64,000 bases of DNA. Origin: Candidatus Latescibacterota bacterium (GTDB lineage Bacteria; Latescibacterota; UBA2968; UBA8231). The notes below the pieces were generated by a model, which was not told the DNA's origin, did not search any database, and was given only the letters and a program-made list of their open reading frames with translations. The stretch covers positions 5,216,001 to 5,280,000 of the forward strand of contig OZ252098.1 of NCBI GenBank assembly GCA_965248355.1, in the 5' to 3' direction. Positions within the stretch are counted from its first letter, which is position 1. Each line of letters opens with the position of its first letter. Made by a program: the position numbers and the translations under genes. This document shows, piece by piece, positions 7,047 through 20,378 of the stretch.

Positions 7047-8699
7047 ATGAGAAGCGTCCCCCCGAGCCAGACCACCTTCGTGGCCCGCGACCCGGGCCTG
7101 TGGCAGGGCTTCGCCGGCCTGTGCCTGACCCCGGGCGGCCGGCTCGTGCTCGGCGTCAAGCAGGCCTACGGCCACGGCGCCTCGCGCTGGCAGCGGGTCG
7201 TGGCCATGACCAGCGGCGACCGCGGCCGCACCTGGTCGGCGCCGGATACGCTGGCCGAGGGCGACTTCGACCGCGGCCTGCCCTTCGTCGCCACCGGCGG
7301 CCTCTACCTGACCGCCCTGCGCGACGGCCGCGCGCTCATGCACTACTTCTCCGAGGGCTGGCCGGAGCGCCGGCCCACCGCACCCCTTCTCCGCACCAGC
7401 GACGACGGCGGCGAGACCTGGTCGCCGGAACGGCCCATGGGCCGCGGCCTGGAGTGCCGTCAGGACGGCGCCGTCCTCGAGCGCCGCAGCGGCGAGCTGC
7501 TGGTCTACACCGGCCTCAACCGGCTGCTGCGCTCCCTCGACGGCGGGCAGACCTGGGAGCTCTTCGGAGACCCGGTGGTGCCGGAGGGCTGTCCCCTGCA
7601 GCTGGGCGAGGTCTGCCTGGCCGAGGCGGCCGACGGCCGCCTGGTCATCCTCATGCGCGAGAACCACTACGCCAACTTCCCCATGTTCGCCGCCGCCTCC
7701 GAGGACGGCGGGCGCACCTGGAGCCGGCCGCGCCCGTCCCCCTTCATCGGCCACTGGCCGGCGGCCTTCGATCTCGGCGACGGGACCCACCTGCTGGCCT
7801 ACCGCAACGTCGGCGGCCGGGCCAACAGCCTCGTGTGGCGCGGCGACCTCGGCGACCTGCCGGGGTACCAGGTGTCGTCGTGCCGCTATCCGGCCGGGGG
7901 CTCTCCGGCGCGGCTCGTCGACGACGGCCTGTTGCTGCAGACCGACGACGCCCCCGGCGCCTTCGCCCAGTTCTACCTGATGCCGGCCGACGATCCGGCG
8001 GCCCACGTGGTCCTCGAGGCCGAGGTCCGCTGCCTGGGCAACGCCGGGCAGGCCTGCAGCCTCGGCCTGAGGGGCGCCGGCTGGCTGCGCATCTTCCCCG
8101 ACCACATCGACCTGGAGCACATCCCGGGGCACAGCCGCGTGACCGTGACCGGCGACCGCTGGCACCGCTACCGCCTGGAGCTGGAGCGGGGGGTCCTGCG
8201 CGTCTCGGTGGACGGCCGGCAGGTCCTCGGCTATCCGGCCATCGACCTGGCGCCGGTCGGCCACGCTCCGTGCAACGCCTTCGGCTGCAAGTTCGACCAC
8301 CGGGAGCTGCCCCGGCCCGAGCTCTACCCGATGCGGGTCCGCCTGCCCCGGTACGTCCGGGCCGGCAACGCCGGCCGCAGCCTGTGGCGCTCGGTGAGCC
8401 TGGACATCACCGGCAACCGCTGGCTGCCCGACCACCACTACCGCTGGCGCCACGACCGCGACGGGCTCCCCGACGCCTGGCAGGAGGACCGCCTGCTCGA
8501 GCTGGAGCACTGCGTCGACGCCGGCGACTGGGGCAAGCCGGTGCCGGTGGCCTTCGCCGACGGCGAGTGTTTCGTCGTCGACTACTTCGGCAACGGCATG
8601 CCCGTGGGGTTCCCGTCCCTGGCGTGGCTGCAGCCGGACCGCGGCCACAACTGCTACGTGAGGGGCTACCGCTTCCGGCTGGAGGAGGTGGCCGGCTGA
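7047..8699 (+). CDS. BNR/Asp-box sialidase-family propeller protein with inserted beta-sandwich domain
   Basis: Asp-boxes SGDRGRTW, SDDGGETW, SLDGGQTW and SEDGGRTW. LamG-like WHRYRLELERGVLRVSVDG segment. GGAG RBS before ATG 7047. Confidence 0.7.
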   Translation: MRSVPPSQTTFVARDPGLWQGFAGLCLTPGGRLVLGVKQAYGHGASRWQRVVAMTSGDRGRTWSAPDTLAEGDFDRGLPFVATGGLYLTALRDGRALMHYFSEGWPERRPTAPLLRTSDDGGETWSPERPMGRGLECRQDGAVLERRSGELLVYTGLNRLLRSLDGGQTWELFGDPVVPEGCPLQLGEVCLAEAADGRLVILMRENHYANFPMFAAASEDGGRTWSRPRPSPFIGHWPAAFDLGDGTHLLAYRNVGGRANSLVWRGDLGDLPGYQVSSCRYPAGGSPARLVDDGLLLQTDDAPGAFAQFYLMPADDPAAHVVLEAEVRCLGNAGQACSLGLRGAGWLRIFPDHIDLEHIPGHSRVTVTGDRWHRYRLELERGVLRVSVDGRQVLGYPAIDLAPVGHAPCNAFGCKFDHRELPRPELYPMRVRLPRYVRAGNAGRSLWRSVSLDITGNRWLPDHHYRWRHDRDGLPDAWQEDRLLELEHCVDAGDWGKPVPVAFADGECFVVDYFGNGMPVGFPSLAWLQPDRGHNCYVRGYRFRLEEVAG

Positions 8700-8980
8700 G
8701 CAGCAGGCGCGCCGAAAAAGCTTGCCGTCCGGCCCCTGAGGTACCATCATTCTGGCGGCCCCGATCTCCGGGGGCCGCCTCGACGGCCGGTCTTCTCCAC
8801 CCGGCGCACGGAGCGGGCCCCCGGGCCAGGGGTCGTGATTCGACGGTGCAAGGGCACGTGAAAACCGATTCTCCGAGACGATTCTTGCCACGGGTGTAAC
8901 GTTCCGGTGGCTCTGCTTTCGGTGACCGTCACTGGAGGTCGAGGCGCTGGGCGCGACACCGACTTCTCAGGGAGGAAGAA

Positions 8981-9307
8981 ATGGCAACTCGAATCATCAT
9001 AGCCCTGATCATACTCGCGGCCCTCGTCCAGGGCTTGGCTCCCGACGCGGTCGGAGGCGGCATCCTGCCCCTTCTCCTCGTCATTCTGGGCCTGGTGTAC
9101 GGGTGGATGGCGGTCGATGCGGAGGACGCCACCGCCTACCTGGTCGTCACCCTCGCCGTGGGCGGGGCGACAAGCATGGACGTGCTGAGCAGCATCCCCG
9201 CCATCGGTGAGTCCCTGGACGCCATCTTCGACCAGGTGGCCATGGCCTTGTTTGCCGGGGTCATCACCATCCTCTGCCAGAGGACGCTCACCCGGCTCAA
9301 AGGGTAG
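8981..9307 (+). CDS. Small integral membrane protein (about 4 TM)
   Basis: Hydrophobic 108-aa ORF with GGAGG RBS. Confidence 0.7.
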   Translation: MATRIIIALIILAALVQGLAPDAVGGGILPLLLVILGLVYGWMAVDAEDATAYLVVTLAVGGATSMDVLSSIPAIGESLDAIFDQVAMALFAGVITILCQRTLTRLKG

Positions 9308-9391
9308 AGACCTCGGGCGCGCAGGCGGGGCCGCCGCGGAGATCCGATCGGATTCCCGCCCGGGTCGCCGCTTCCCCTTCATGAGAGATAG

Positions 9392-9425
9392 AAAGGCCGC
9401 CGGGCGCGGAACCCGGCGGCCTTTT
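9392..9425. terminator. Intrinsic terminator hairpin (possibly bidirectional)
   Basis: AAAGGCCGCCGGG-cgcggaa-CCCGGCGGCCTTT(T), a perfect 13-bp stem downstream of the 8981-9307 gene. Confidence 0.7.
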
Positions 9426-9454
9426 GCGTGATGACCGCGACGGGAGCCAGGAAG

Positions 9455-9733
9455 ATGCCGCAGCGCAGACAGAAGGTGATGATCCTCTACCTGTCCTACT
9501 CGGCCCTCGACAGCCCCGTCAAGGGATGGACCTTCTACGACGGCACCGGCCGGGAGCACCACACCACCGGCGACAGCACCGAGCCCCCGTACGCCACCGG
9601 CCTCGAGGCCCTGCGCGACGGCTGGCGGGTGATTCAGTTCCCGCAGCTGAACCCGCCCTATCCGGGCACCGAGTACACCACCTCGTTCCAGAAGAACGAG
9701 TTCATCTTCGAGAAGCTGGAGGAGATCGACTGA
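9455..9733 (+). CDS. Small hypothetical protein coupled to the downstream dioxygenase
   Basis: Good GC3 bias; TGATG overlap with the next gene. Confidence 0.75.
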   Translation: MPQRRQKVMILYLSYSALDSPVKGWTFYDGTGREHHTTGDSTEPPYATGLEALRDGWRVIQFPQLNPPYPGTEYTTSFQKNEFIFEKLEEID

Positions 9734-10599
9734 TGGTGGACAAACGATACCTGCTCGGCTCGAAACAGATGGCCGAGTTCGTGGCCCGCGGCGTTCTGCA
9801 GTTCGACGAGATCGTGCCGGAGGAGATCAACCAGGCCGTGATCGCCGAGATCGACGGCGACGGCATCGCCAGCCAGCCGGCGGGCACGCCGCTGTCGAAG
9901 TGCTATCCCCAGCCATCCCCCATCGGGCGCATGCTCAGGATGCCCCAGATCCACGGGATCGTCCACAGCCTGGTCGGCCCCGACCCCCTCTTCGACCACC
10001 AGGCCGTCCACGTCCGTCAGCCCAGGGAGGGCCACGCCCAGGGCCTGCACGGCGACTCGATCATCGACACGCGCATGCACTTCGACATCCAGCTCATGTA
10101 CTTCCCGCACGACGTGCCCCTGGAGATGGGCGGCACCATGCTGCTGCCGGGAAGCCACTTCCGTCGCGTCAACGAGCTCGACGTGGGCCGCTACCAGAAC
10201 TTCCTCGGCCAGCTGCCGATGGTCTGCAAGGCCGGGACCCTGGCCGTCGTCCACCACGGCATCTGGCACTGCGGCCGGCAGAACAAGACCGACCGCGTCC
10301 GCTACATGTTCAAGATCCGCCTCAACCCCGCGGTGCGGCAGCTGCGGCTGTGGAACACCAACGACCTGGAGCAGGGCGGCGGCCCCGAGATCATCTACGG
10401 CGGGTCGAGCCACGGCGACGCGGGGGTCGCCACGATCCTCAACAGCCAGGAGCCCTGGTTCGAGGCCGCCGACGGACGCCTGGAGATCGTCAACCGGATC
10501 AAGCTCTGGCGCTTCCTCACGGGGGACGACAACTTCGACGCCCACTACTGGCTGACCAGGCTCGAGAACATGCCGGAGAACCGGGTCGAAGCGGCCTGA
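9733..10599 (+). CDS. Phytanoyl-CoA dioxygenase (PhyH) family Fe(II)/2OG oxygenase
   Basis: LHGD (HxD), GGTMLLPGSH, IWHCG (distal His), R-Y-M-F-K. Confidence 0.85.
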   Translation: MVDKRYLLGSKQMAEFVARGVLQFDEIVPEEINQAVIAEIDGDGIASQPAGTPLSKCYPQPSPIGRMLRMPQIHGIVHSLVGPDPLFDHQAVHVRQPREGHAQGLHGDSIIDTRMHFDIQLMYFPHDVPLEMGGTMLLPGSHFRRVNELDVGRYQNFLGQLPMVCKAGTLAVVHHGIWHCGRQNKTDRVRYMFKIRLNPAVRQLRLWNTNDLEQGGGPEIIYGGSSHGDAGVATILNSQEPWFEAADGRLEIVNRIKLWRFLTGDDNFDAHYWLTRLENMPENRVEAA

Positions 10600-10654
10600 G
10601 GACTTCACCCGCGACCGGGGTCCGCCTCGGTCCCGCCCAGGCGCGCAGGGCTTC

Positions 10655-11857
10655 TTGAAGAAGTCCACGCTCGTCATCCTGGTCAGCGCGGTCATCGTCG
10701 CCGTCTCCATGGGGGCGCGGCAGTCCTTCGGCCTGTTCCTGCAGCCGGTGACGGAAGCGCTGTCGACGGGCCGGGAGACCTTCAGCCTCGCCATGGCCCT
10801 GCAGAACATCCTCTTCGGGCTGCCGATCGCCGGGATCCTCGCCGACCGCATCGGCCCGCGCCGGGTGGTGGCCGGGGGAGCCCTCCTGTACGCCGCCGGC
10901 TTCGCCCTCCTCGCCGTCGCCAGCACCCCCTGGCTCACCTTCCTCTCCCTCGGGGCCCTGGTCGGTCTCGCTCTCAGCGCCACGTCCTACGTCGTCCTTC
11001 TCGGCGCCGTGGCCCGCGTCGTACCTGCGAAGAAGAGAGCCGCCTCCTTCGGCATCGTGACCGCGGCCGGCTCCTTCGGCACCTTCGCCATCGTCCCGTT
11101 GATCCAGTGGCTGATCAACACCCTGTCCTGGCAGGCTACCTTGTTGTACGGCGCCGCCGTCGTCGCGGCCATCGCCCCCTTCGCCCTCGGATTCCCGCCG
11201 GCATCGGAAGCTCCCGAGGGCACCCGCGCCTCCGACCTGGAGAATGACTTCTCCCGACTCCTGTCACGGGCGAGCCGGCATTCGGGCTACCTGCTGCTCA
11301 ACGCCGGATTCTTCGTCTGCGGCTTCCACGTCGCCTTCATAGCCACCCACCTGCCGGCCTACCTCGGCGACCACGGGCTCCCCGAGATGGTCGCGGCCAC
11401 GGCCCTCGCCCTGGTCGGGCTGTTCAACATGGGGGGATCCTGGCTCTTCGGCCGGCTCGGCGACCGCTACCGCAAGAAGTACCTGCTCAGCTTCCTCTAC
11501 ATCGCGCGGGCCCTCGTCATCAGCGGTTTCCTGGTCGTGCCCGTCACCACCGCCACCGCCCTAATCTTCGCCTGCGCCATCGGCTTCCTCTGGCTGGCGA
11601 CCGTGCCCCTCACCAGCGGCATGGTGGCCCAGATCTTCGGACCGGCCAGGCTCTCGTCTCTCTACGGGATCGTCTTCTTCAGCCACCAGGTCGGCGGCTT
11701 CCTCGGGGTCTGGCTCGGGGGCCGCATCTACGACGCCACCGGGTCGTACGATGCCGTCTGGGTCGGGGCCATCGTTCTGGGGGTCGCAGCCGCGGTCGTC
11801 CACCTGCCGATCAAGGACATGGCTCTGGGGGAGGTGCCGGAACCTGCCTCGGCCTGA
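10655..11857 (+). CDS. MFS transporter (OFA/MCT-like)
   Basis: About 12 TM segments; GILADRIGPRR and GRLGDRYRKK motif-A copies; TTG start. Confidence 0.9.
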   Translation: MKKSTLVILVSAVIVAVSMGARQSFGLFLQPVTEALSTGRETFSLAMALQNILFGLPIAGILADRIGPRRVVAGGALLYAAGFALLAVASTPWLTFLSLGALVGLALSATSYVVLLGAVARVVPAKKRAASFGIVTAAGSFGTFAIVPLIQWLINTLSWQATLLYGAAVVAAIAPFALGFPPASEAPEGTRASDLENDFSRLLSRASRHSGYLLLNAGFFVCGFHVAFIATHLPAYLGDHGLPEMVAATALALVGLFNMGGSWLFGRLGDRYRKKYLLSFLYIARALVISGFLVVPVTTATALIFACAIGFLWLATVPLTSGMVAQIFGPARLSSLYGIVFFSHQVGGFLGVWLGGRIYDATGSYDAVWVGAIVLGVAAAVVHLPIKDMALGEVPEPASA

Positions 11858-12425: not shown

Positions 12426-12521
12426 GCCGGAAGCGGGCCCGGGCCCGGCCTCTACCCTCGCCCCGGTTCCGCCTCCGCCTCGCCCAGCCGCTCCGCGATC
12501 CGCGTGAACTGCTCCAGCGCC
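12426..12521. repeat. Direct-repeat copy at the functional hsdM 3' end
   Basis: Homologous to 11861-11955. Confidence 0.85.
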
Positions 12522-13957
12522 GCCTCGAGGTCGTCGGCGATCTCGGCGGCGATGACGTCGGGGGCCGGCAGCGAGTCGGTGTCGGTCAGGCTCTCGTCCC
12601 TGATCCAGAACAGGTCGAGGCTCAGCTTGTCCCGCTTCTGCAGCTCGTCGTAGTCGTAGCAGCGCCAGCGGCCGTCCGGGTTGTCCTCGCTCCAGGTCTC
12701 GGCGCGCTCGTGCAGGCGGCCGGGCTTGTAGCACTCGACGAAGTCGTCGAAGTCCTCCCGCCGGATCGGCTTCTGCTTCAGCGTGAAGTGCAGGTTGGTG
12801 CGCAGGTCGTAGATCCACAGGCGGTCGGTCCAGGCCTCGGCCCGGCCCTCCTTCTTGTCGAAGAACACCACGTTGGCCTTGACGCCGGGCGAGTACCAGA
12901 TGCCGGTGGGCAGGCGCAGCAGGGTGTGGACGCGGCACTTCTCCAGCAGGTTGCGCCGCACCCTTTCTCCCGCACCGCCCTCGAAGAGCACGTTGTCCGG
13001 CAGCACCACGGCGGCGCGGCCGTCGATCGTCAGCAGACTGTAGATGTGCTGCACGAAGTTGAGTTGCTTGTTGCTGGTGGAGGTCCAGAAATCCTCGCGC
13101 ACGACGACCGAGTCCTCCTTCTCCGTGTCGCCCTCCTCGTTCACGAAGAGCAGGCTCTGCTTCTTACCGAAGGGCGGATTGGCGAGGACCATCGAGTACT
13201 CGCGGCCCCACGGTGCGGAGAGGCTGTCGTGGCCGGTATGCACGACCACTTCCTCGCCGCCGATGCCGTGCAGGTAGAGGTTCATGGCGCACATGCGGCC
13301 GACCTTGGCCGAGATCTCCATGCCCTCCACCAGATCGGTCTGGAGAGCCCGCTTCTCGTCGCCGTCGAGGCCGCTCTCGTACCGGTCCAACACGTACTGG
13401 TAGGCGTTGCACAGGAAGCCGCCGGTGCCCGCCGCCGGATCGCAGATACGGTCCCCGGGCGCCGGCTGCATGACCTCGCACATGGCCTGGATGACCGGGC
13501 GCGGGGTGAAGTACTGGCCGGCGCCGCGCGAGGACTCCTGCGCCGAACGGGAGAGCAGTTCCTCGTAGATCGTGCCCTTCACATCCACCGGCAGCGACAG
13601 CCAGTCCACCTGATCGAGGAGGTTGGCGATTAGCTGCTTCAGGCGCGCCGGGTTGCGGATCTCGCAGCGCGCGCCCCTGAAGATGACCCCGAGCATTCCG
13701 CGCTCGGCCCCCAGCGTCTCCAGGCTCTTGCGGTACTGGTCCTCCAAGGCCGCGCCGTCGAGCGGCAGCAGCGCCTTCCACCCAAGCTCCGGGGGAACGA
13801 GCGTTTCGCGCTCGTAGGGCGGCTCGGTGAGCTGGTCCGCCATCTTGAGGAAGAGCAGCAGGGTGAGCTGCTCGACGTACTCGAAGCAGGAGAGCCCGTC
13901 GTCCCGCAGGACGCCGGCGTAGTTCCAGGCCCGCTTGCCGATCTGGGAGGCGTCCAT
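12452..13957 (-). CDS. hsdM: Type I restriction-modification methyltransferase subunit M (N6-adenine)
   Basis: GQYFTPR, DPAAGTGGFL (motif I), ANPPFG (motif IV), LLRLPTGIW, YDLRTN. Confidence 0.95.
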   Translation of the reverse strand: MDASQIGKRAWNYAGVLRDDGLSCFEYVEQLTLLLFLKMADQLTEPPYERETLVPPELGWKALLPLDGAALEDQYRKSLETLGAERGMLGVIFRGARCEIRNPARLKQLIANLLDQVDWLSLPVDVKGTIYEELLSRSAQESSRGAGQYFTPRPVIQAMCEVMQPAPGDRICDPAAGTGGFLCNAYQYVLDRYESGLDGDEKRALQTDLVEGMEISAKVGRMCAMNLYLHGIGGEEVVVHTGHDSLSAPWGREYSMVLANPPFGKKQSLLFVNEEGDTEKEDSVVVREDFWTSTSNKQLNFVQHIYSLLTIDGRAAVVLPDNVLFEGGAGERVRRNLLEKCRVHTLLRLPTGIWYSPGVKANVVFFDKKEGRAEAWTDRLWIYDLRTNLHFTLKQKPIRREDFDDFVECYKPGRLHERAETWSEDNPDGRWRCYDYDELQKRDKLSLDLFWIRDESLTDTDSLPAPDVIAAEIADDLEAALEQFTRIAERLGEAEAEPGRG

Positions 13958-13964
13958 GCAGTGC

Positions 13965-14360
13965 TCAGGCCGTGAGGGCCAGTGGATGCCCGATGAGCTG
14001 CCGGTCCGTGGTGAGGAGCCTGAGATTCTCTTCCTGGGCCTGCACGAGGAGCAGCTCGTCGAAGGGATCTCTATGGGAGAGAGGGGTCTGCAGCTCGCAG
14101 GCGGCGTGACGCTCGGTCAGGGGCAGGAAGGTTATGTCCAGCCCCTCGAGAGCGGCGACCACCTCGCCGGGATCGAAGGGACTCTTGCGCTCCCCGGACG
14201 CCCGCAGAGCCCGGTACTTCAGCCGCATCTCCCAGATCGACACGGCGCTCACGTGCAGTTGCACCCCGTGCTCATCGAAGAACTGTCGCAGCTCATCCGA
14301 GAACCGTCCCTGGGCTTCCATAAGGCCATACAGGTAGAAAGTATCGAGGAGGACACGCAC
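13965..14360 (-). CDS. vapC: VapC/PIN-domain toxin
   Basis: MRVLLDT, SAVSIWE, HRDPFD, LLTTD: acidic PIN residues present. Confidence 0.9.
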   Translation of the reverse strand: MRVLLDTFYLYGLMEAQGRFSDELRQFFDEHGVQLHVSAVSIWEMRLKYRALRASGERKSPFDPGEVVAALEGLDITFLPLTERHAACELQTPLSHRDPFDELLLVQAQEENLRLLTTDRQLIGHPLALTA

Positions 14361-14374
14361 CGGCCGTCTCCCGC

Positions 14375-14656
14375 CTATTCCTCGTCCTCAAGTCCCAGCA
14401 CGCGGCGGCTGAGGGCAGAGTCGTGAAAGGCCGCCATCATCGCCTCCACTTCCTCCGGCGGCGCGTCCTTGATCCCGAGGCGGCGACGGTTGGCGTTCAG
14501 CCGGTCCCAGTCAAAACCGCGGCGCTGCTTCCGTTCACAGCGCACGAGTTGAACGGCCGGCTCGCCCTTCTTGGTTATGACCACCCGTTCGCCGTTCTCG
14601 GCTGCGGTGACCAACTCGGCGAGGCGGTCCTCCGCCTCGTGCAAGGCTAGTTCCAT
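14375..14656 (-). CDS. Phd/YefM family antitoxin, copy A (directly upstream of vapC)
   Basis: EA..RL.ELV.AAENGERVVITKKGEPAVQLV Phd signature; AGGAGG RBS. Confidence 0.9.
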   Translation of the reverse strand: MELALHEAEDRLAELVTAAENGERVVITKKGEPAVQLVRCERKQRRGFDWDRLNANRRRLGIKDAPPEEVEAMMAAFHDSALSRRVLGLEDEE

Positions 14657-14718
14657 GGTCCATCCTCCTGGATGTGTGATGGTGCAGTCGGGCCCTCGGA
14701 ATGCGCATGTCCGGCCGC

Positions 14719-15000
14719 CTATTCCTCGGCCTCAAGTCCCAGCACCCGGCGGCTGAGGGCGGAGTCGTGAAAGGCGGCTATCATCGCCTCGGCTTCTTCC
14801 GGAGGGGCGTCCTTGATCCCGAGTTCGCGACGGATGTCGTTCAGCCGGTCCCAGTCAAGACCACGGCGCTGGATTCGTTCACAGCGCACGAGTTGAACGG
14901 CCGGCTCGCCCTTCTTGGTTATGACCACCCGTTCGCCGTTCTCGGCTGCGGTGACCAACTCGGGGAGGCGGGTCTTCGCCTCGTGCAAGGGTAGTTCCAT
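14719..15000 (-). CDS. Phd/YefM family antitoxin, copy B (toxin lost)
   Basis: Tandem paralogue of copy A offset by 344 bp; HEAKTRLPELV. Confidence 0.9.
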   Translation of the reverse strand: MELPLHEAKTRLPELVTAAENGERVVITKKGEPAVQLVRCERIQRRGLDWDRLNDIRRELGIKDAPPEEAEAMIAAFHDSALSRRVLGLEAEE

Positions 15001-15042
15001 GGTCCATGTTCCTGAATGTGATGTCGGGTGCTGGTACGCTGC

Positions 15043-16737
15043 CTATTCCTCTTCCTCGAGTCCCAGCACTTGGCGGCTGAACGTCGGATCGTCGAATTCC
15101 TTGGGCCACCTCTCTTCGTCTCCCTTGGTTCCGAGACGACGGCGGTCGGTCTCCAGCTTCTCGAAGTCGATGCCGCCACGCCGTTGCGAAGTCCGGGAGC
15201 GACCCCGCCGCCGCGTCTTGCCGCCGGCCCTTGCTGACCGCTTGGCCGCGGCCGCGCTTCTTTCGCGTGCTTGCCGTTCCGAGGCGATGCGCTCCAGGAG
15301 GGTTGAGGCGGGTTCGTCGTTCGGATCCTGAGGCACGAGCTTGCCGCTGAAGGCGTGCTTCAGGATGGCTTGGCGGAGGGACTGGGCTCCATGCAGCTTG
15401 GCTTCGATGTCGGCTTCGAGGCGGTCTATGTTGGAGAACTGGCCTTCCACGGCTTCGACGATGGCAAGCTGTTCGGCAAAGGACGGCAGTGGTAGAGCCA
15501 GTGTGCGAAGGATTCGGTTGTTGATGTTCTTCTGGGCGGTTGCAGGTGCATAGACAGAAATCTGATCTCTCGCACTCTGGACAAAGAGTTCCACGTACTG
15601 CACTGAGACGAGCGATGGGTCAAAGAGGACCCCAACGATGCTGTCAGGAAAGCATGCTGGGTAGGCTAGAATGGCTGTCTCCGCAATGTTAGCTGCAATG
15701 GTTATGCACAACGTCTCTGTCGGCCAGAGGCGACTCTGCTTCAGGCCTTCCTCACTATAAGTCTGAGTATGCTGCCGAAGATACCGGTCGGCACCCCTTA
15801 TGTCTCCTGTCTGGACGAAAGGATAGGGTCCGCCATAGAGGAACTCTGCGTTCCGAGGTCGATGTCGCGACCGTCCACGGTCGAGCTTCCCCAGTTGATC
15901 CAAGGAGCCCCAGCACCACCCTTCCGGCAGCGGCGGGAGATCGGCGGTGTCAGGTGCGACCGGTTCCTTGTATCTGGTTTTCCAATTCTTCGGCGGCGTC
16001 TTCCCCTTCTCCTTGAACTTGCGGATCTGATCTTTCTCCCAGCGCCGGCGGCGCTCGACGAGAATCCGCTTCAGAAACTCCTCGGCGGGCTCGGCCGGTG
16101 GATTCCGCCGCCGCACCTCAGCGGTGAGCGATCCTTCGACCGCGGCCTTCAGCACCGAGGCGCGATAGAGTTTCAGCTGTTCTTGTGTCCGTTCCAGGGC
16201 CGCGACGCCGGCGTCGAGATCGGAGAACAACTCTTCAAGAGTATCTGCGATCCGAGTTTGTTCGCTTGCTGGGGCAAGCGGAAACCTGAAGTGGCGAAAC
16301 GTCTCTGCCCGGACGCGCATGAGAGAACCACCAACCCCGGAAGCATTGCCGGCGGCATAATCACGGACGATGTCCTGGCGTAGAAACCAAGCGAGGTAGC
16401 GTGGTTCGATCTGTGAGAGGGGGAAGAAAGGAATCCATTCGGTGGAGGCGACTTTGGGATAGTCAGAGTGAGCCCCTGTCACCCAGACTCGGTTGATGCG
16501 AGGGTTGATCTTGCATAGCAAGACCGTTCCGGACTCCACAGTTCGCTTGTTCGATCCAATAGTACTTCCCGGCGTGATTTCCGGCATGCCGTGCTCGTGG
16601 CTCGGGACACTGTAGAGTTCGAACATGGCATCAGGCGTCAGAGCAGGATTAACGCCTCGGGCAAGGTCCATCTGGACGGCGCCAAGTGTCGTTTCTGCCC
16701 AGCCCGGTGGGAGTTCTGACGTGTCCCATTCGTTCAC
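15043..16737 (-). CDS. hsdS: Type I RM specificity subunit S with C-terminal antitoxin-derived extension
   Basis: LPPGW-TRD1-EQTRIA...VLKAAVEGSLT...LPEGWCW-TRD2-EQLAIV...LRQAILKHAFSGKLVPQDPNDEPASTLLERI. The last 47 aa are homologous to the Phd C-terminal halves. GTG 16737 is the likely start; the ORF is open from 16785. Confidence 0.92.
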   Translation of the reverse strand: MNEWDTSELPPGWAETTLGAVQMDLARGVNPALTPDAMFELYSVPSHEHGMPEITPGSTIGSNKRTVESGTVLLCKINPRINRVWVTGAHSDYPKVASTEWIPFFPLSQIEPRYLAWFLRQDIVRDYAAGNASGVGGSLMRVRAETFRHFRFPLAPASEQTRIADTLEELFSDLDAGVAALERTQEQLKLYRASVLKAAVEGSLTAEVRRRNPPAEPAEEFLKRILVERRRRWEKDQIRKFKEKGKTPPKNWKTRYKEPVAPDTADLPPLPEGWCWGSLDQLGKLDRGRSRHRPRNAEFLYGGPYPFVQTGDIRGADRYLRQHTQTYSEEGLKQSRLWPTETLCITIAANIAETAILAYPACFPDSIVGVLFDPSLVSVQYVELFVQSARDQISVYAPATAQKNINNRILRTLALPLPSFAEQLAIVEAVEGQFSNIDRLEADIEAKLHGAQSLRQAILKHAFSGKLVPQDPNDEPASTLLERIASERQARERSAAAAKRSARAGGKTRRRGRSRTSQRRGGIDFEKLETDRRRLGTKGDEERWPKEFDDPTFSRQVLGLEEEE

Positions 16738-16821
16738 GCCGTCAACCTTTCCTTCAATCTCCTCACCAATCAGCTGACAACGCATATCGATCTGTCCGAA
16801 CCATGTGATCGGCGGTCAACT

Positions 16822-17442
16822 TCACGAAGCCGGTGGCAGATCGTCAAACCCGACTACGGAGGATGATATGGAGGCCCGTTCTCTGCCCGGGAGCGCCTGG
16901 CGGCGGCGCCCGCGGCGCGGATAGGCTTCGGCATACAGCGGCGCAGCCCTGATCTGCTTCTCGGTCAGCATCGGGTAGGCCGCCTGGATCTCGGCAACCG
17001 GGTCGCCGTTGGCGAGCATGGCGGCGATGTCGTGGATCGGGATGCGCGTGCCCATGAAGCAGGGCGCGCCTCCAAGCACACGGTCGTCGACCTCGGCCAT
17101 CTGCCTGGCCCGCGCCAGCCTGGCGACGCCGCGACGCACGTCCTCCGCCAGCGCCCGCACATCGAGCGAAAGGGCTTCGTCACGCACGGCCTCCGCTGCC
17201 GGCTCGTCGAGCAGACACCGGATGAGGCGGCGGCGCCCTTCCCGCGTCAGGACAGGCCCCATCTGATAGGCCAGCTTCAGCCCCACGAGGCCGGCGCCGA
17301 GAACGACGCGCGCGCCGTTGCGGGTCTCGACCGCATCCGCCAGCAGACCCGCGTCGATGATGCGGTGCACCTGCTTCAGGGGGACACCGGTGACGCAGGC
17401 CGCCTCGTTCGCGGACCAAGAGTGCTTATATGTTTCCACCAT
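16822..17442 (-). CDS. HTH + DUF433 domain protein (VapB45-type antitoxin), toxin partner absent
   Basis: VLGGAPCFMGTRIPIHDIAAMLANGDPVAEIQAAYPMLTEKQIRAA is the DUF433 signature; MerR-like N-terminus EAACVTGVPLKQVHRIID. Confidence 0.85.
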   Translation of the reverse strand: MVETYKHSWSANEAACVTGVPLKQVHRIIDAGLLADAVETRNGARVVLGAGLVGLKLAYQMGPVLTREGRRRLIRCLLDEPAAEAVRDEALSLDVRALAEDVRRGVARLARARQMAEVDDRVLGGAPCFMGTRIPIHDIAAMLANGDPVAEIQAAYPMLTEKQIRAAPLYAEAYPRRGRRRQALPGRERASISSSVVGFDDLPPAS

Positions 17443-17451
17443 AGTGGAAGG

Positions 17452-17480
17452 ATTATACCCCGCCGGAAGGCAGCCGGCAA
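17452..17480 (-). promoter_or_regulatory. Sigma70-type promoter for the DUF433-hsdS-phd-phd-vapC-hsdM unit
   Basis: On - strand TTGCCG-N17-TATAAT. The -10 box ends 9 nt before ATG 17442, implying a near-leaderless transcript. Confidence 0.7.
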
Positions 17481-17522
17481 GGTGCCATCACCCGTGGACC
17501 TGCGGTGCGCTTGACCGGGCCC

Positions 17523-20378
17523 TCACGCCGCCAACCTCTCGTTCAGTTCCGCCATCAATGGCTTCAGTTCCTCGCGAAATAGCGCGTGAGCCCGCCCCAG
17601 GCTGCCCTGCTGTCCGAACCATCCAGCCTCGAAGTCTTCCCGCTCGATGGCGAGGCTGGTGGCGATATGCTCGGCCATGCGATCGAGCCATTCCCGCTGT
17701 TCGGCGGTGAAGGCGTTGTCCGCGTCCCGTGCCCGCAGCCAGGCCTGGTAGCGCTCGTGTAACTCCTTCCGATATGGGGCAAGTCTCCCGCTCGGGATCA
17801 GGGCGTGGCGCACGAGGTTGACGAGATCCGCGAGTTGGAATCCGCCTTGCCCCTCGACCTTGTCCGCCTCCACCGCCTCGAAGGCGCGCCACAATTGGAC
17901 GGGGGTGGCGGAGATGGGCGGCCGGACCAAGGCATCCTTCAGATCCCGCAGGTCCTTGAGCGACAGGTTGAGCGGCCGGGTTCCGGCGTAGAGCACCTGG
18001 AGCGCGGTCAGCTCATCCTTGTGTTCCTCGATCCAGGCGCGGAAGTCCTGCACCTTGGCCCGCGCCTTGTCGACGGCGGCGGCGTCGAAGCCGGAGTAGA
18101 GCACGTCGTCGATGGTGTGGCGGTCGATGGTCTGCTCGTTCTGTTGGCGGATCTCCAGGATGCGGCGGCGGAAGGCGGCGTTGAGGAAGGGGGTCGCCGC
18201 TTCCCGGGCGAGCTGCTTGCCGGCCTGCTCGATCTCCTCCTCGGTGGGGTGTTCTGTCCCGTGCTGCTCCTGGGCAGCCTTGAGCTGGGCCTCGGGGTCA
18301 CAGGCGTTGAGCAGATCGCGGGCGAGGTCGGGGAAGGTCTTGCCATCCGCCAGGCCCTTCAGCTCGGTGAGTTGTTGCGGCGTGAACTCCCTCTGCAGGC
18401 GGGCGAGCCGGCCGGCGAGCGTGCTCAGGGCGTCGGGATCGATGCCGCCCCGTGCGATGTAGCTGAGCACCTGCTCCAGGGTTCTCGACGGCTGGCGGTT
18501 CAGGGTCCGGGAATCGGTCTTGTCCTGCTCGCACACTCCCACCGCGTCCACGACGATGAAGCGGTCCTTGCCCTTGGCGCTCGGGGTGACGGCGCGGAGC
18601 TTGTCGGTCGAGATGACGCGGACTCCCCGGCCCTTCATCTGCTCGAAGAAGCCGGCCGACCTCACGTTGCGCATGAAGAACACGCACTCGATGGGCCGCA
18701 CGTCGGTGCCGGTGGAGATCATGTCCACGGTGACGGCGATGCGCGGGAAGAAGCTGTTGCGGAAGTTGGCGAGGATCTCGTCCGGGGTGAGGCTGGCGGT
18801 CTTCACCCATTCCGTCACCTCGGTCTCGGTGCCGTCCTCGTCGGTCACCGTCTTTGTGACCTGGGTGAAGCCGGTACGGTAGGTGATCTTCTGGCAGAAG
18901 TCGTTGCCCTCGCCGAACTCCTCGCGTGCGACGCGGACGATGTCGTCGGCGTGGGAATCGTCCTTGGCGAAGATCAGGGTCTTCGGCACCTCGTCGCGGT
19001 CCGGGAAGGCCTCCGGCAGCACCCCGTCTCGGAACTGCCGCAGCACCGTGCGGATCTGGCTCTCCGAGACCACGTCGCGGTCGAGCTGGTTGGCGGTGTA
19101 GGTGAGATCCTGGTTGAGCAGTTGCAGCCGTTCTCTGCGTGTCAGCCGGTTGCGCATGTCTACGTAGAGGCCGGTCTCATCGGCGGCGATGGTGGCGCCC
19201 TGCTCGGTGACCGCTGTCTGGATACGGTACACGTCGAAGTCCACGTTCACCCCGTCGACCACCGCCTCGTCATGGCCGTACTGCATGACGAGGTTCTGGT
19301 TGAAGAAGGCGATGGTGCGCCCGGTGGGGGTGGCGGTCAGGCCGATGAGGAAGGAATCGAAGTAGAGGAGCACCCGGCTCCAGAGGTCATATATCGAGCG
19401 GTGGCACTCGTCGACGATGATGAAGTCGAAGAACTCCGGCGGCACGGTAGCGTTGTAGGCCACGTCGGGGGGTTCGCCGCGCCAGGGCCCCGCGGACTCG
19501 AAGCCCGAGCCTTCCTCGTTGTCTGAGTCGTAGTCGGGTTCGCCTCGCAGCATCGAGTAGAGCCGCTGGATGGTGGTGATGACCACGTTGGCCGCGGGGT
19601 TGATCGAGTTGGCGGTGAGGCGGTGGACGGTATACAGCTCCGGGAATCTGCGCGGGTCGTCAGGCGGCGTGAAGTTGGCGAACTCGTCCTCGGCCTGCTT
19701 GCCGAGATTGGTGCGGTCCACCAGAAACAGGATGCGCTTGGCGCCGCCGTGCTTGAGCAGGCGATAGACGACGTTGACCGCGGCAAAGGTCTTGCCCGAC
19801 CCGGTGGCCATCTGCCCGGTGGCCATCTGGATGAGGGCCCGCTGATCGGCCTTGGCAAAGGACCGTTCGAGGTTGCGGATGGCGCGGGCCTGGACCGCCC
19901 ACAGGCGGGACTCGTCCAGGGGCGGCAATTCTCTCAGCTGCGCGCGCAAGGACGCGGGCTGCGTCATCCACGCCTGCAGCGTCTGGGGCCTCGGGAAGTT
20001 GAAGACCGGGCGGCTCCTCGGCACCGGGTCGAGCCCGTTCGTGAAGTAGGCTACGGACCCGTTGGCCTCGAACAGGAAGGGCAGGGGGATGCGATACACG
20101 GGGAGAGCTTCCGAAACGCCCGCGGCATACTTCGCCGACTGCGCCTCCACGCCGGTCAGGGTTCCCTCTGGCTTGGCTTCGATGGCGCCGGCGATCGTGC
20201 GGTCCACGTAGAGCAGGTAGTCGGCGGTGCCGAACCCGGGCTTCATCGGGAACTCGCGCACGGCGACGCCGGGGCCCGCGGAGAGGTCGAGCTCCTCCTG
20301 GTCCTGGACCAGCCAGCCCGCCGCCTCGAGGTTCGCGTCGATATCGCGGCGGGCGCGTTGCTCGGGAGTATCGCTCAT
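17523..20378 (-). CDS. hsdR: Type I restriction endonuclease subunit R (EcoAI/EcoEI-like)
   Basis: ADYLL...IEAK nuclease motif, MATGSGKT Walker A, DECH, GLTATP, TVDMISTGTD, QMKGRG. Confidence 0.95.
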   Translation of the reverse strand: MSDTPEQRARRDIDANLEAAGWLVQDQEELDLSAGPGVAVREFPMKPGFGTADYLLYVDRTIAGAIEAKPEGTLTGVEAQSAKYAAGVSEALPVYRIPLPFLFEANGSVAYFTNGLDPVPRSRPVFNFPRPQTLQAWMTQPASLRAQLRELPPLDESRLWAVQARAIRNLERSFAKADQRALIQMATGQMATGSGKTFAAVNVVYRLLKHGGAKRILFLVDRTNLGKQAEDEFANFTPPDDPRRFPELYTVHRLTANSINPAANVVITTIQRLYSMLRGEPDYDSDNEEGSGFESAGPWRGEPPDVAYNATVPPEFFDFIIVDECHRSIYDLWSRVLLYFDSFLIGLTATPTGRTIAFFNQNLVMQYGHDEAVVDGVNVDFDVYRIQTAVTEQGATIAADETGLYVDMRNRLTRRERLQLLNQDLTYTANQLDRDVVSESQIRTVLRQFRDGVLPEAFPDRDEVPKTLIFAKDDSHADDIVRVAREEFGEGNDFCQKITYRTGFTQVTKTVTDEDGTETEVTEWVKTASLTPDEILANFRNSFFPRIAVTVDMISTGTDVRPIECVFFMRNVRSAGFFEQMKGRGVRVISTDKLRAVTPSAKGKDRFIVVDAVGVCEQDKTDSRTLNRQPSRTLEQVLSYIARGGIDPDALSTLAGRLARLQREFTPQQLTELKGLADGKTFPDLARDLLNACDPEAQLKAAQEQHGTEHPTEEEIEQAGKQLAREAATPFLNAAFRRRILEIRQQNEQTIDRHTIDDVLYSGFDAAAVDKARAKVQDFRAWIEEHKDELTALQVLYAGTRPLNLSLKDLRDLKDALVRPPISATPVQLWRAFEAVEADKVEGQGGFQLADLVNLVRHALIPSGRLAPYRKELHERYQAWLRARDADNAFTAEQREWLDRMAEHIATSLAIEREDFEAGWFGQQGSLGRAHALFREELKPLMAELNERLAA
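19800..19829. repeat. Perfect 15-bp tandem duplication in hsdR motif I
   Basis: cccggtggccatctg x2, giving QMATG-QMATG-SGKT. Confidence 0.9.

Follow-up and report, generated by a model that had tools for sequence, protein, structure and literature searches.

An antitoxin half fused in-frame to the HsdS subunit of a Latescibacterota type I restriction–modification operon

Introduction

Why should the specificity subunit of a restriction enzyme end in half of an antitoxin? The question is raised by a 64,000-nt stretch of a Candidatus Latescibacterota bacterium genome (GenBank assembly GCA_965248355.1, contig OZ252098.1, positions 5,216,001 to 5,280,000 of the forward strand; hereafter the window, with positions counted from its first letter). 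In this window, the hsdS gene of a type I restriction–modification (RM) operon runs on in-frame into sequence resembling the toxin–antitoxin (TA) genes beside it. An initial annotation, made from the letters of the window, proposed that the extension is a toxin-neutralising module through which the RM system guards a VapC toxin, and offered a neutral deletion scar as the alternative. Here, we show that the last 47 hsdS codons are the C-terminal half of a Phd/YefM-family antitoxin, and we weigh the readings of this fusion; a scar of recent origin appears the likelier of the two.

Results

HsdS ends in the C-terminal half of a Phd/YefM antitoxin

The hsdS open reading frame (ORF) lies at 15043–16785 on the minus strand, as do all genes of the operon described below, and encodes a protein of 580 aa whose C-terminal end reads ...RRRGRSRTSQRRGGIDFEKLETDRRRLGTKGDEERWPKEFDDPTFSRQVLGLEEEE. 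Residues 1–504 (15274–16785) are HsdS proper, with two target recognition domains (TRDs) and the central and C-terminal conserved helices, matched by Pfam Methylase_S in two stretches. Residues 505–533 (15187–15273) form a basic low-complexity linker, QARERSAAAAKRSARAGGKTRRRGRSRTS, and residues 534–580 with the stop codon (15043–15186) form an in-frame tail, which corresponds to the C-terminal half of an antitoxin that we term ‘T-type’. The two Methylase_S stretches, a PADLOC Specificity_I match (E = 8.6e-91) and the presence of hsdR and hsdM in the same operon identify the protein as a type I specificity subunit. The PADLOC type I S-subunit models stop at residues ~515–527, so that the last ~55–65 residues fall outside them, and a Pfam scan of the whole protein returned Methylase_S alone and no PF02604. 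An AlphaFold2 (AF2) model of the whole HsdS, built from nine sequences, had a mean pLDDT of 41, which is too low to judge whether the tail is disordered.

At the DNA level, the tail aligns to the 3' halves of two full-length antitoxin genes next to it, phd1 (14719–15000) and phd2 (14375–14656), including the stop codon and the bases beyond, with one 12-nt gap. The surroundings of the stop codon are nearly invariant among the three copies: TCAGCCGCC..GTGCTGGGACT.GAGG..GAGGAATAGGC. At the protein level, a search within the one genome gave 47–48% identity between the tail and the products of phd1 and phd2 (E = 1.1e-5 and 7.9e-4), and a search of 5.8 billion sequences returned a free-standing Phd, P0009 (88 aa, PF02604), with 90% identity over the searched region (E = 6.3e-22). 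The C-terminal half of P0009 differs from the window tail by one residue within the shared motif, and the similarity is far beyond chance. These results confirm that codons 15046–15186 (minus strand) encode the C-terminal half of a Phd/YefM-family antitoxin, in agreement with the initial annotation, which had matched the extension, stop region included, to the C-terminal halves of the adjacent Phd proteins.

The tail is homologous to the C-terminal half of PF02604/TIGR01552 members, among which phd1, phd2 and the free-standing T-type proteins are counted. Those members have an N-terminal DNA-binding and dimerisation domain, whereas in HsdS the C-terminal half alone is present, from RRGGIDF onward. 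PF02604 is defined by its N-terminal Phd/YefM domain, which is missing from the tail; HsdS is therefore not itself a member of the Phd/YefM family.

To place the junction, we compared the window's own genome (G000) with a congener (G006) and with a genome of the same family but another genus (G035). In G035, an untailed hsdS fragment ends ...GGKTRRRPRTSQHEEHQPWS*, with the native HsdS end ~8 residues past ...RTSQ, and the basic linker is present in it; the linker is therefore HsdS's own. Accordingly, the antitoxin-like extension proposed initially is real, but the HsdS end had been placed too early, since the linker is native and the true end falls ~8 residues past ...RTSQ. The antitoxin-derived part begins at R535 or Q534, which puts the junction within 15181–15189. 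Between G000 and G006, the linker is the fastest-evolving part of the protein (dN, non-synonymous divergence, 0.25; omega, its ratio to synonymous divergence dS, 0.64). Contigs of runs X5 (15085–15421) and X7 (15085–15555) span the junction without differences, and an X11 contig (15041–15397) spans it with nine differences; the three runs belong to three different studies.

The T-type module outside HsdS

We defined the T-type module from 31 free-standing proteins, which carry the motif RGGIDFxKLxxxRxRLGIxGDxExWPxxFxDPxFSRQVLGL at their C-terminus. A short-protein search found the module in 42 of 43 candidates, mostly proteins of 86–89 aa with PF02604. In a further genome, G039, a T-like phd adjoins a vapC homologue whose product is 70% identical to that of the window, with no RM genes nearby. 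The module also stands behind HTH_3 (P0177) and ParD-type RHH (P0185) domains, in line with the modularity already described for antitoxins. The HTH_3 domain of P0177 is of the Xre type, and in P0208 the module follows a weak HTH_3/MqsA-like domain. P0177, P0185 and P0208 make a clear case of one toxin-binding element shuffled among DNA-binding domains.

By homology, the HsdS tail is a true toxin-neutralising module, because the free-standing 88-aa antitoxin has an almost identical C-terminal half. The phd alignments, the match to P0009 and the conserved positions all bear out the homology to the toxin-neutralising half of Phd that had been claimed initially.

Origin of the fusion and instability of the locus

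The layout of G035 points to how the fusion arose. There, the hsdS fragment ends ...RTSQHEEHQPWS*, and its stop overlaps the ATG of a first, apparently frameshifted phd. Next in the row are the gene of a free-standing T-type Phd (88 aa), another phd, which is the third, a frameshifted vapC (L210 7548–7927) and hsdM. The C-terminal half of this T-type Phd is 80% identical to the tail. In the window, hsdS passes from ...RTSQ directly into RRGGIDF..., the middle of a T-type protein. The unfused layout and this join together argue that an in-frame deletion took the end of hsdS and the N-terminal half of a phd.

We propose the following course. Ancestrally, the hsdS and hsdM genes of a type I RM operon would have enclosed a phd(xN)–vapC module. 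A recent in-frame deletion would then have removed the last ~8 hsdS codons and the stop, together with the N-terminal DNA-binding/dimerisation half of a T-type phd and possibly one whole preceding copy. The product would be HsdS with its native basic linker and a 46–47-residue neutralising half, terminated by the antitoxin's own stop. The fusion may afterwards have moved, with the constant hsdS C-terminal region, onto alleles with other TRDs, and it appears to have drifted almost neutrally since.

The locus is visibly unstable. The products of phd1 and phd2 are 87% identical, and the genes form a tandem duplicate (Tandem Repeats Finder: 14371–15020, period 344 bp, 1.9 copies, 90% matches). Contigs of the runs X5, X7 and X11 contain the joints 14370>14719 and 14681>15041, each lacking one 344–360-bp phd unit. 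A further joint, 15182>14882, represents a free-standing T-type phd of full length that is present in these communities. In G006, an insertion of ~1.4 kb separates the two phd genes (L209 about 8615–10058), and vapC has been deleted, leaving a phdB that ends ...GEETA* and retains the last two residues of VapC (L209 10058–10352). Two ORFs lie in this insertion, one of 105 aa that contains CxxC...CxxC motifs and one of 260 aa or more that bears no evident relation to RM or TA genes. The best other PIN match in the G006 genome has 32% identity, and no close vapC copy was found there. The vapC gene is truncated to 115 aa in G039 (L211 5841–6188) and absent in another genome, G167 (L213 1375–1770). 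Within the phylum, five species genomes hold the T-type module, and an intact vapC is found only in that of the window; the toxin gene has been lost or broken in every relative holding the module.

One protein, P0046 (92 aa), joins HsdR residues ~62–118 (79% identical to the window HsdR) to the last 35 tail residues, which implies either that another large deletion had one end within this module or that the contig is chimeric. The hsdS gene of G035 is itself split, with residues 170–316 and 407–534 separated by ~2.4 kb of unrelated DNA (L210 about 9330–11690), and an ORF within this DNA looks transposase-like.

Distribution of the fusion

A tail unique to this assembly would, by the initial annotation, have spoken against its proposal. 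Besides the contigs of three other studies, the same fusion is found in G006 and in 11 further HsdS proteins from protein searches (P0001–P0008, P0010, P0012 and P0174). These proteins carry different TRDs and share an identical junction; they are 51–67% identical over the whole protein, compared with 80–98% in the tail. Tailed HsdS were present in 2 of 76 genomes of the family and in 2 of 168 genomes of the phylum, the window's genome being counted in both. When metagenome and genome contigs were scanned with the last 120 HsdS residues, matches to the generic C-terminal region of HsdS dominated. Of the 160 generic-HsdS loci that were kept, none covers the tail and none has phd or vapC in its flanks. 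As phd and vapC flank 0 of these 160 loci, the TA insertion in this RM operon is lineage-specific.

A tree of the 47-residue module, which has too few columns, requires two changes for the tails, yet a single tail clade is not rejected (p-AU, the approximately unbiased test, 0.28). Free-standing P0009 nests among the tails. Multiple independent fusions are considered less likely, because the junction is identical in all tailed HsdS. One fusion origin in this genus-level lineage fits the sequences, a reading that rests mainly on that junction.

Selection on the tail

The initial annotation had suggested dN/dS of the tail as a check on its function. Between G000 and G006 (15046–15186 vs L209 8147–8287), the 141 nt of the tail show 0 synonymous and 4 non-synonymous differences. 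For the same pair, hsdR and hsdM have dS 0.26–0.27 and omega 0.14–0.17, and the conserved parts of hsdS have dS 0.5–0.7 and omega 0.2–0.3. The expected number of synonymous differences in the tail was 6.9, and the probability of observing 0 is 0.001. That all four differences are non-synonymous has a probability of 0.37 under neutrality (omega = 1) and of 0.03 if omega is 0.2. Free-standing T-type genes of G039 and G167 differ by 6 synonymous and 3 non-synonymous substitutions (omega 0.12), and the substitution counts of tail and free-standing genes differ with a one-sided Fisher p of 0.049.

The residues that changed were also compared. At 29 conserved positions, deviations number 2.67 per tail (12 tails) vs 0.74 per free-standing protein, a ~3.6-fold difference. 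They include R3C, K10E, R15H/P, R17P (in G006), G19A and F31C, with the radical changes W27R and L41P in P0007 and P0008, and the tail of P0174 lacks the ...QVLGLEEEE end. By our count on the alignment, ~14 events affect the 29 conserved positions, compared with ~11 for the 18 variable positions; both classes thus change at similar rates. Taken together, the codon and residue patterns lean towards relaxed constraint since the fusion.

The low divergence of the tail stands between flanks, namely the linker, the conserved hsdS regions and phd1, with dS of 0.28–0.69 in the same G000–G006 comparison. We read this as a young fusion allele that would have spread by recombination with the constant hsdS C-terminal part. 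On this evidence, the tail is probably a young and nearly neutral in-frame deletion scar, which possibly still binds VapC in this genome.

Several points weigh against this reading. The selection tests rest on tiny counts (4 and 9 substitutions) and on tails that are not independent, and the 29-position consensus was built on the free-standing set and is biased in its favour. The window tail agrees with the 31 free-standing proteins at 28 of the 29 positions where these are at least 90% conserved, and 12 of 13 tailed HsdS retain an open, full-length tail. The tail is also less diverged than its flanks: of 4563 segments of 141 nt in hsdR, the DUF433 gene beside it and hsdM, only 136 (3%) have as few as four differences or fewer. 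A sweep of a useful allele or a nucleotide constraint would look similar to young age. Moreover, the orphan T-type antitoxins of G039 and G167, whose vapC is truncated or absent, are still at omega 0.12; as such orphans stay constrained, the loss of vapC in G006 is no proof that its tail is useless. Finally, in the sections of Ernits et al. (2023, PNAS, PMC10440598) used here, attachment to SUMO enables a Phd-C element to neutralise its toxin, which the isolated element does not do, and from which it follows that a carrier-fused tail can be active.

On balance, the signs of relaxed constraint, the G006 tail without vapC and the lost end of the P0174 tail speak against the maintained ‘RM-guarded toxin’ of the initial annotation, and the same evolutionary evidence makes its alternative, a neutral deletion scar, the better-supported reading.

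VapC and the alternative readings

The vapC gene (13965–14360) encodes an apparently intact toxin of 131 aa with a PIN domain (Pfam PF01850). The protein keeps all invariant columns of 81 homologues, including E44, D98, D101 and D119, as well as the nearly invariant D6. Its AF2 model (pLDDT 95.4) has a PIN fold, and the best Foldseek matches in the Protein Data Bank (PDB) are VapC chains of VapBC complexes, with TM of 0.55–0.65; by sequence, the VapC and Phd profiles each had 0 matches among solved structures. PF01850, the acidic active-site residues and the adjacent antitoxin gene mark it as a PIN toxin. The initial annotation's pairing of the tail with an adjoining VapC is upheld in that this toxin is intact by its conserved columns, its model and its PDB matches. 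Since the tail is nearly identical to the C-terminal half of a working antitoxin and VapC is intact here, the HsdS of the window may bind VapC through its tail. The two full-length Phd copies are likely the real neutralisers and autoregulators, which would make the tail dispensable.

If the tail does bind VapC, the binding could have been selected. In this alternative, which we consider unlikely, the tail is a tether or guard that would hold VapC or VapC–Phd on HsdS or on the M2S or R2M2S complex, and RM loss, proteolysis or phage inhibition would free the RNase, by analogy with PrrC and EcoprrI; in a variant, the tail would supply an extra, HsdS-linked dose of neutraliser. It is favoured by a tail that, by homology, is a genuine neutralising module and almost identical to its counterpart in the free-standing antitoxin, by the intact VapC of the window, and by genes that appear co-transcribed, with hsdM starting 7 nt after vapC. 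The fusion occurs in at least 13 HsdS with different TRDs, and the tail tract is unusually similar between G000 and G006, as a spreading advantageous allele would give. The sources cited also provide, in the portions drawn on here, precedents for a Phd-C element that neutralises its toxin on a carrier (PMC10440598) and for RM-held toxins in PrrC (bioRxiv 10.1101/2024.01.29.577857). However, a guard under selection agrees poorly with the 0 synonymous and 4 non-synonymous differences, with the replacements at family-invariant positions in several tails and with the broken tail of P0174. G006 has the tail and no cognate vapC, so that the co-occurrence of tail and toxin fails there, and the fusion is present in only 2 of 168 phylum genomes. 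Furthermore, two full-length Phd genes lie between the tail and vapC, and because of them VapC does not depend on HsdS. The more specific form of this alternative, in which the HsdS tail would dock VapC on the type I RM complex and the RM enzyme would act as the ‘antitoxin’ of a PIN RNase, is somewhat less likely still; there, a phage anti-restriction protein, proteolysis or operon loss would free VapC.

More doubtful again is a role at the nucleotide level, by which the tail DNA, from the 3' end of a lost phd, would be kept for expression signals of the downstream phd–phd–vapC–hsdM genes, such as an operator, an RNA hairpin or translational coupling. Synonymous sites frozen between G000 and G006 (0 vs 6.9 expected) and a last ~45 nt nearly invariant among the three paralogous copies would suit it, as would a 10-bp inverted repeat (15028–15037/15060–15069) that brackets the hsdS stop upstream of phd1. 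The arms of this repeat are 90% complementary and 22 nt apart, and it may be due to chance, a hairpin or an operator remnant; it is, however, one isolated hit, and G006 has an altered second arm. Free-standing genes vary synonymously in the same stretch (6 in G039/G167 and 7.5 in G000/G035), and a promoter scan found no promoter-like site in or near the tail. The four G000/G006 differences all fall within the first 60 nt at the 5' end of the tail, which leaves an identical stretch of only ~95 nt.

An assembly or annotation artefact, such as a missed stop or a chimeric join, is refuted for practical purposes by the bridging contigs of three other studies, two of them without any difference, and by the fusions in the independent genome G006 and in 11 further HsdS sequences from protein searches, and nothing was found in its favour.

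The surrounding operon

The genes are tightly packed in the order hsdR–DUF433–hsdS–phd–phd–vapC–hsdM. The first, hsdR (17523–20378), encodes a restriction subunit of 951 aa (Pfam ResIII, EcoEI_R_C and SWI2_SNF2) that is 91% identical to its G006 orthologue. Between hsdR and hsdS lies a DUF433 gene (16822–17442; 206 aa; Pfam PF04255, E = 3.6e-17), which occupies the same position in G006 with 84% identity; its product has no Pfam match over the N-terminal ~115 residues. According to the parts of Matelska 2017 (PMC5499597) used here, DUF433 is the antitoxin partner of PIN_10 toxins. The gene stands here without an adjoining PIN_10 partner. The promoter scan found a sole sigma-70-like site within 13800–17600, at 17480–17452, directly upstream of the DUF433 gene.

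Downstream of hsdS, phd1 and phd2 each encode a full-length Phd/YefM antitoxin of 93 aa. The phd1 product matches PF02604 (E = 3.4e-9) and the NCBIfam phd_fam model, and the phd2 product matches PF02604 (E = 8.4e-7) with 29.1 bits, just under the 29.8-bit gathering cut-off. The end of phd2 lies 14 nt upstream of vapC. The operon closes with hsdM (12452–13957), which encodes a type I methyltransferase of 501 aa (Pfam N6_Mtase and HsdM_N) and starts 7 nt past the vapC stop. RNA run X19 yielded two short contigs, 14216–14253 and 14848–15023, neither of them on the tail, which are uninformative on expression.

Discussion

Under any of these readings, the locus is a dated snapshot of the decay and recombination of TA modules embedded in defence operons. 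Here, an antitoxin has been amplified in tandem, the toxin has been lost repeatedly, and a host protein of unrelated origin has captured a linear neutralising motif; accidental fusions of this kind are thought to give rise to modular antitoxins and guard systems. If the tail binds VapC, it would allow one to ask, in a natural setting, whether a neutralising motif is active on whatever stable carrier it is attached to, and from there whether toxins can be kept by RM complexes. Should the docking described above hold, the window would contain a covalently wired backup from RM to TA, and a TA toxin would for the first time be linked directly and physically to an RM complex. If the tail is a scar only, it carries a caution: in-frame antitoxin remnants can mimic designed domain fusions, and conservation among close relatives is no evidence of function.

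How does this arrangement compare with known systems? Matelska 2017 (PMC5499597) catalogued type I RM operons to which PIN toxin genes are coupled; in the sections consulted, the authors remark that the arrangements are unstable between relatives and that a direct TA–RM interaction had not been demonstrated. The present locus resembles those systems in having a PIN toxin gene inside an hsdR/S/M operon, here also with a DUF433 gene, and in an arrangement that is not conserved in close relatives, pointing to recent rearrangements. It differs from the systems in those sections in that part of the antitoxin is covalently fused to HsdS; full-text literature searches returned no description of an HsdS–antitoxin fusion.

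Genes embedded in type I RM systems are treated by Payne et al. (bioRxiv 10.1101/2024.01.29.577857), in whose text, to the extent used here, PrrC is the classic latent nuclease. As in EcoprrI–PrrC, a toxic RNase gene lies within a type I RM operon, and the guard model of the initial annotation was of this kind. However, PrrC as described there is an ABC-ATPase/anticodon nuclease without an antitoxin, whereas a PIN protein and two ordinary antitoxin genes are found here; the association with the RM complex would follow only from the fused peptide, and the evolutionary data do not establish maintenance of the fusion.

A parallel to the tail itself is the Phd-C element. As far as the portion of Ernits et al. 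(2023) used here describes it, a short C-terminal neutralising element works on different carriers (Panacea and SUMO), and the T-type element likewise stands behind Phd/YefM, HTH_3, ParD-RHH and HsdS. The element of that study neutralises Doc kinases, whereas the T-type element pairs with PIN/VapC; moreover, the carrier here is an RM specificity subunit rather than an antitoxin domain, and the fusion looks accidental. The HsdS fusion of the window is thus a new arrangement of known parts.

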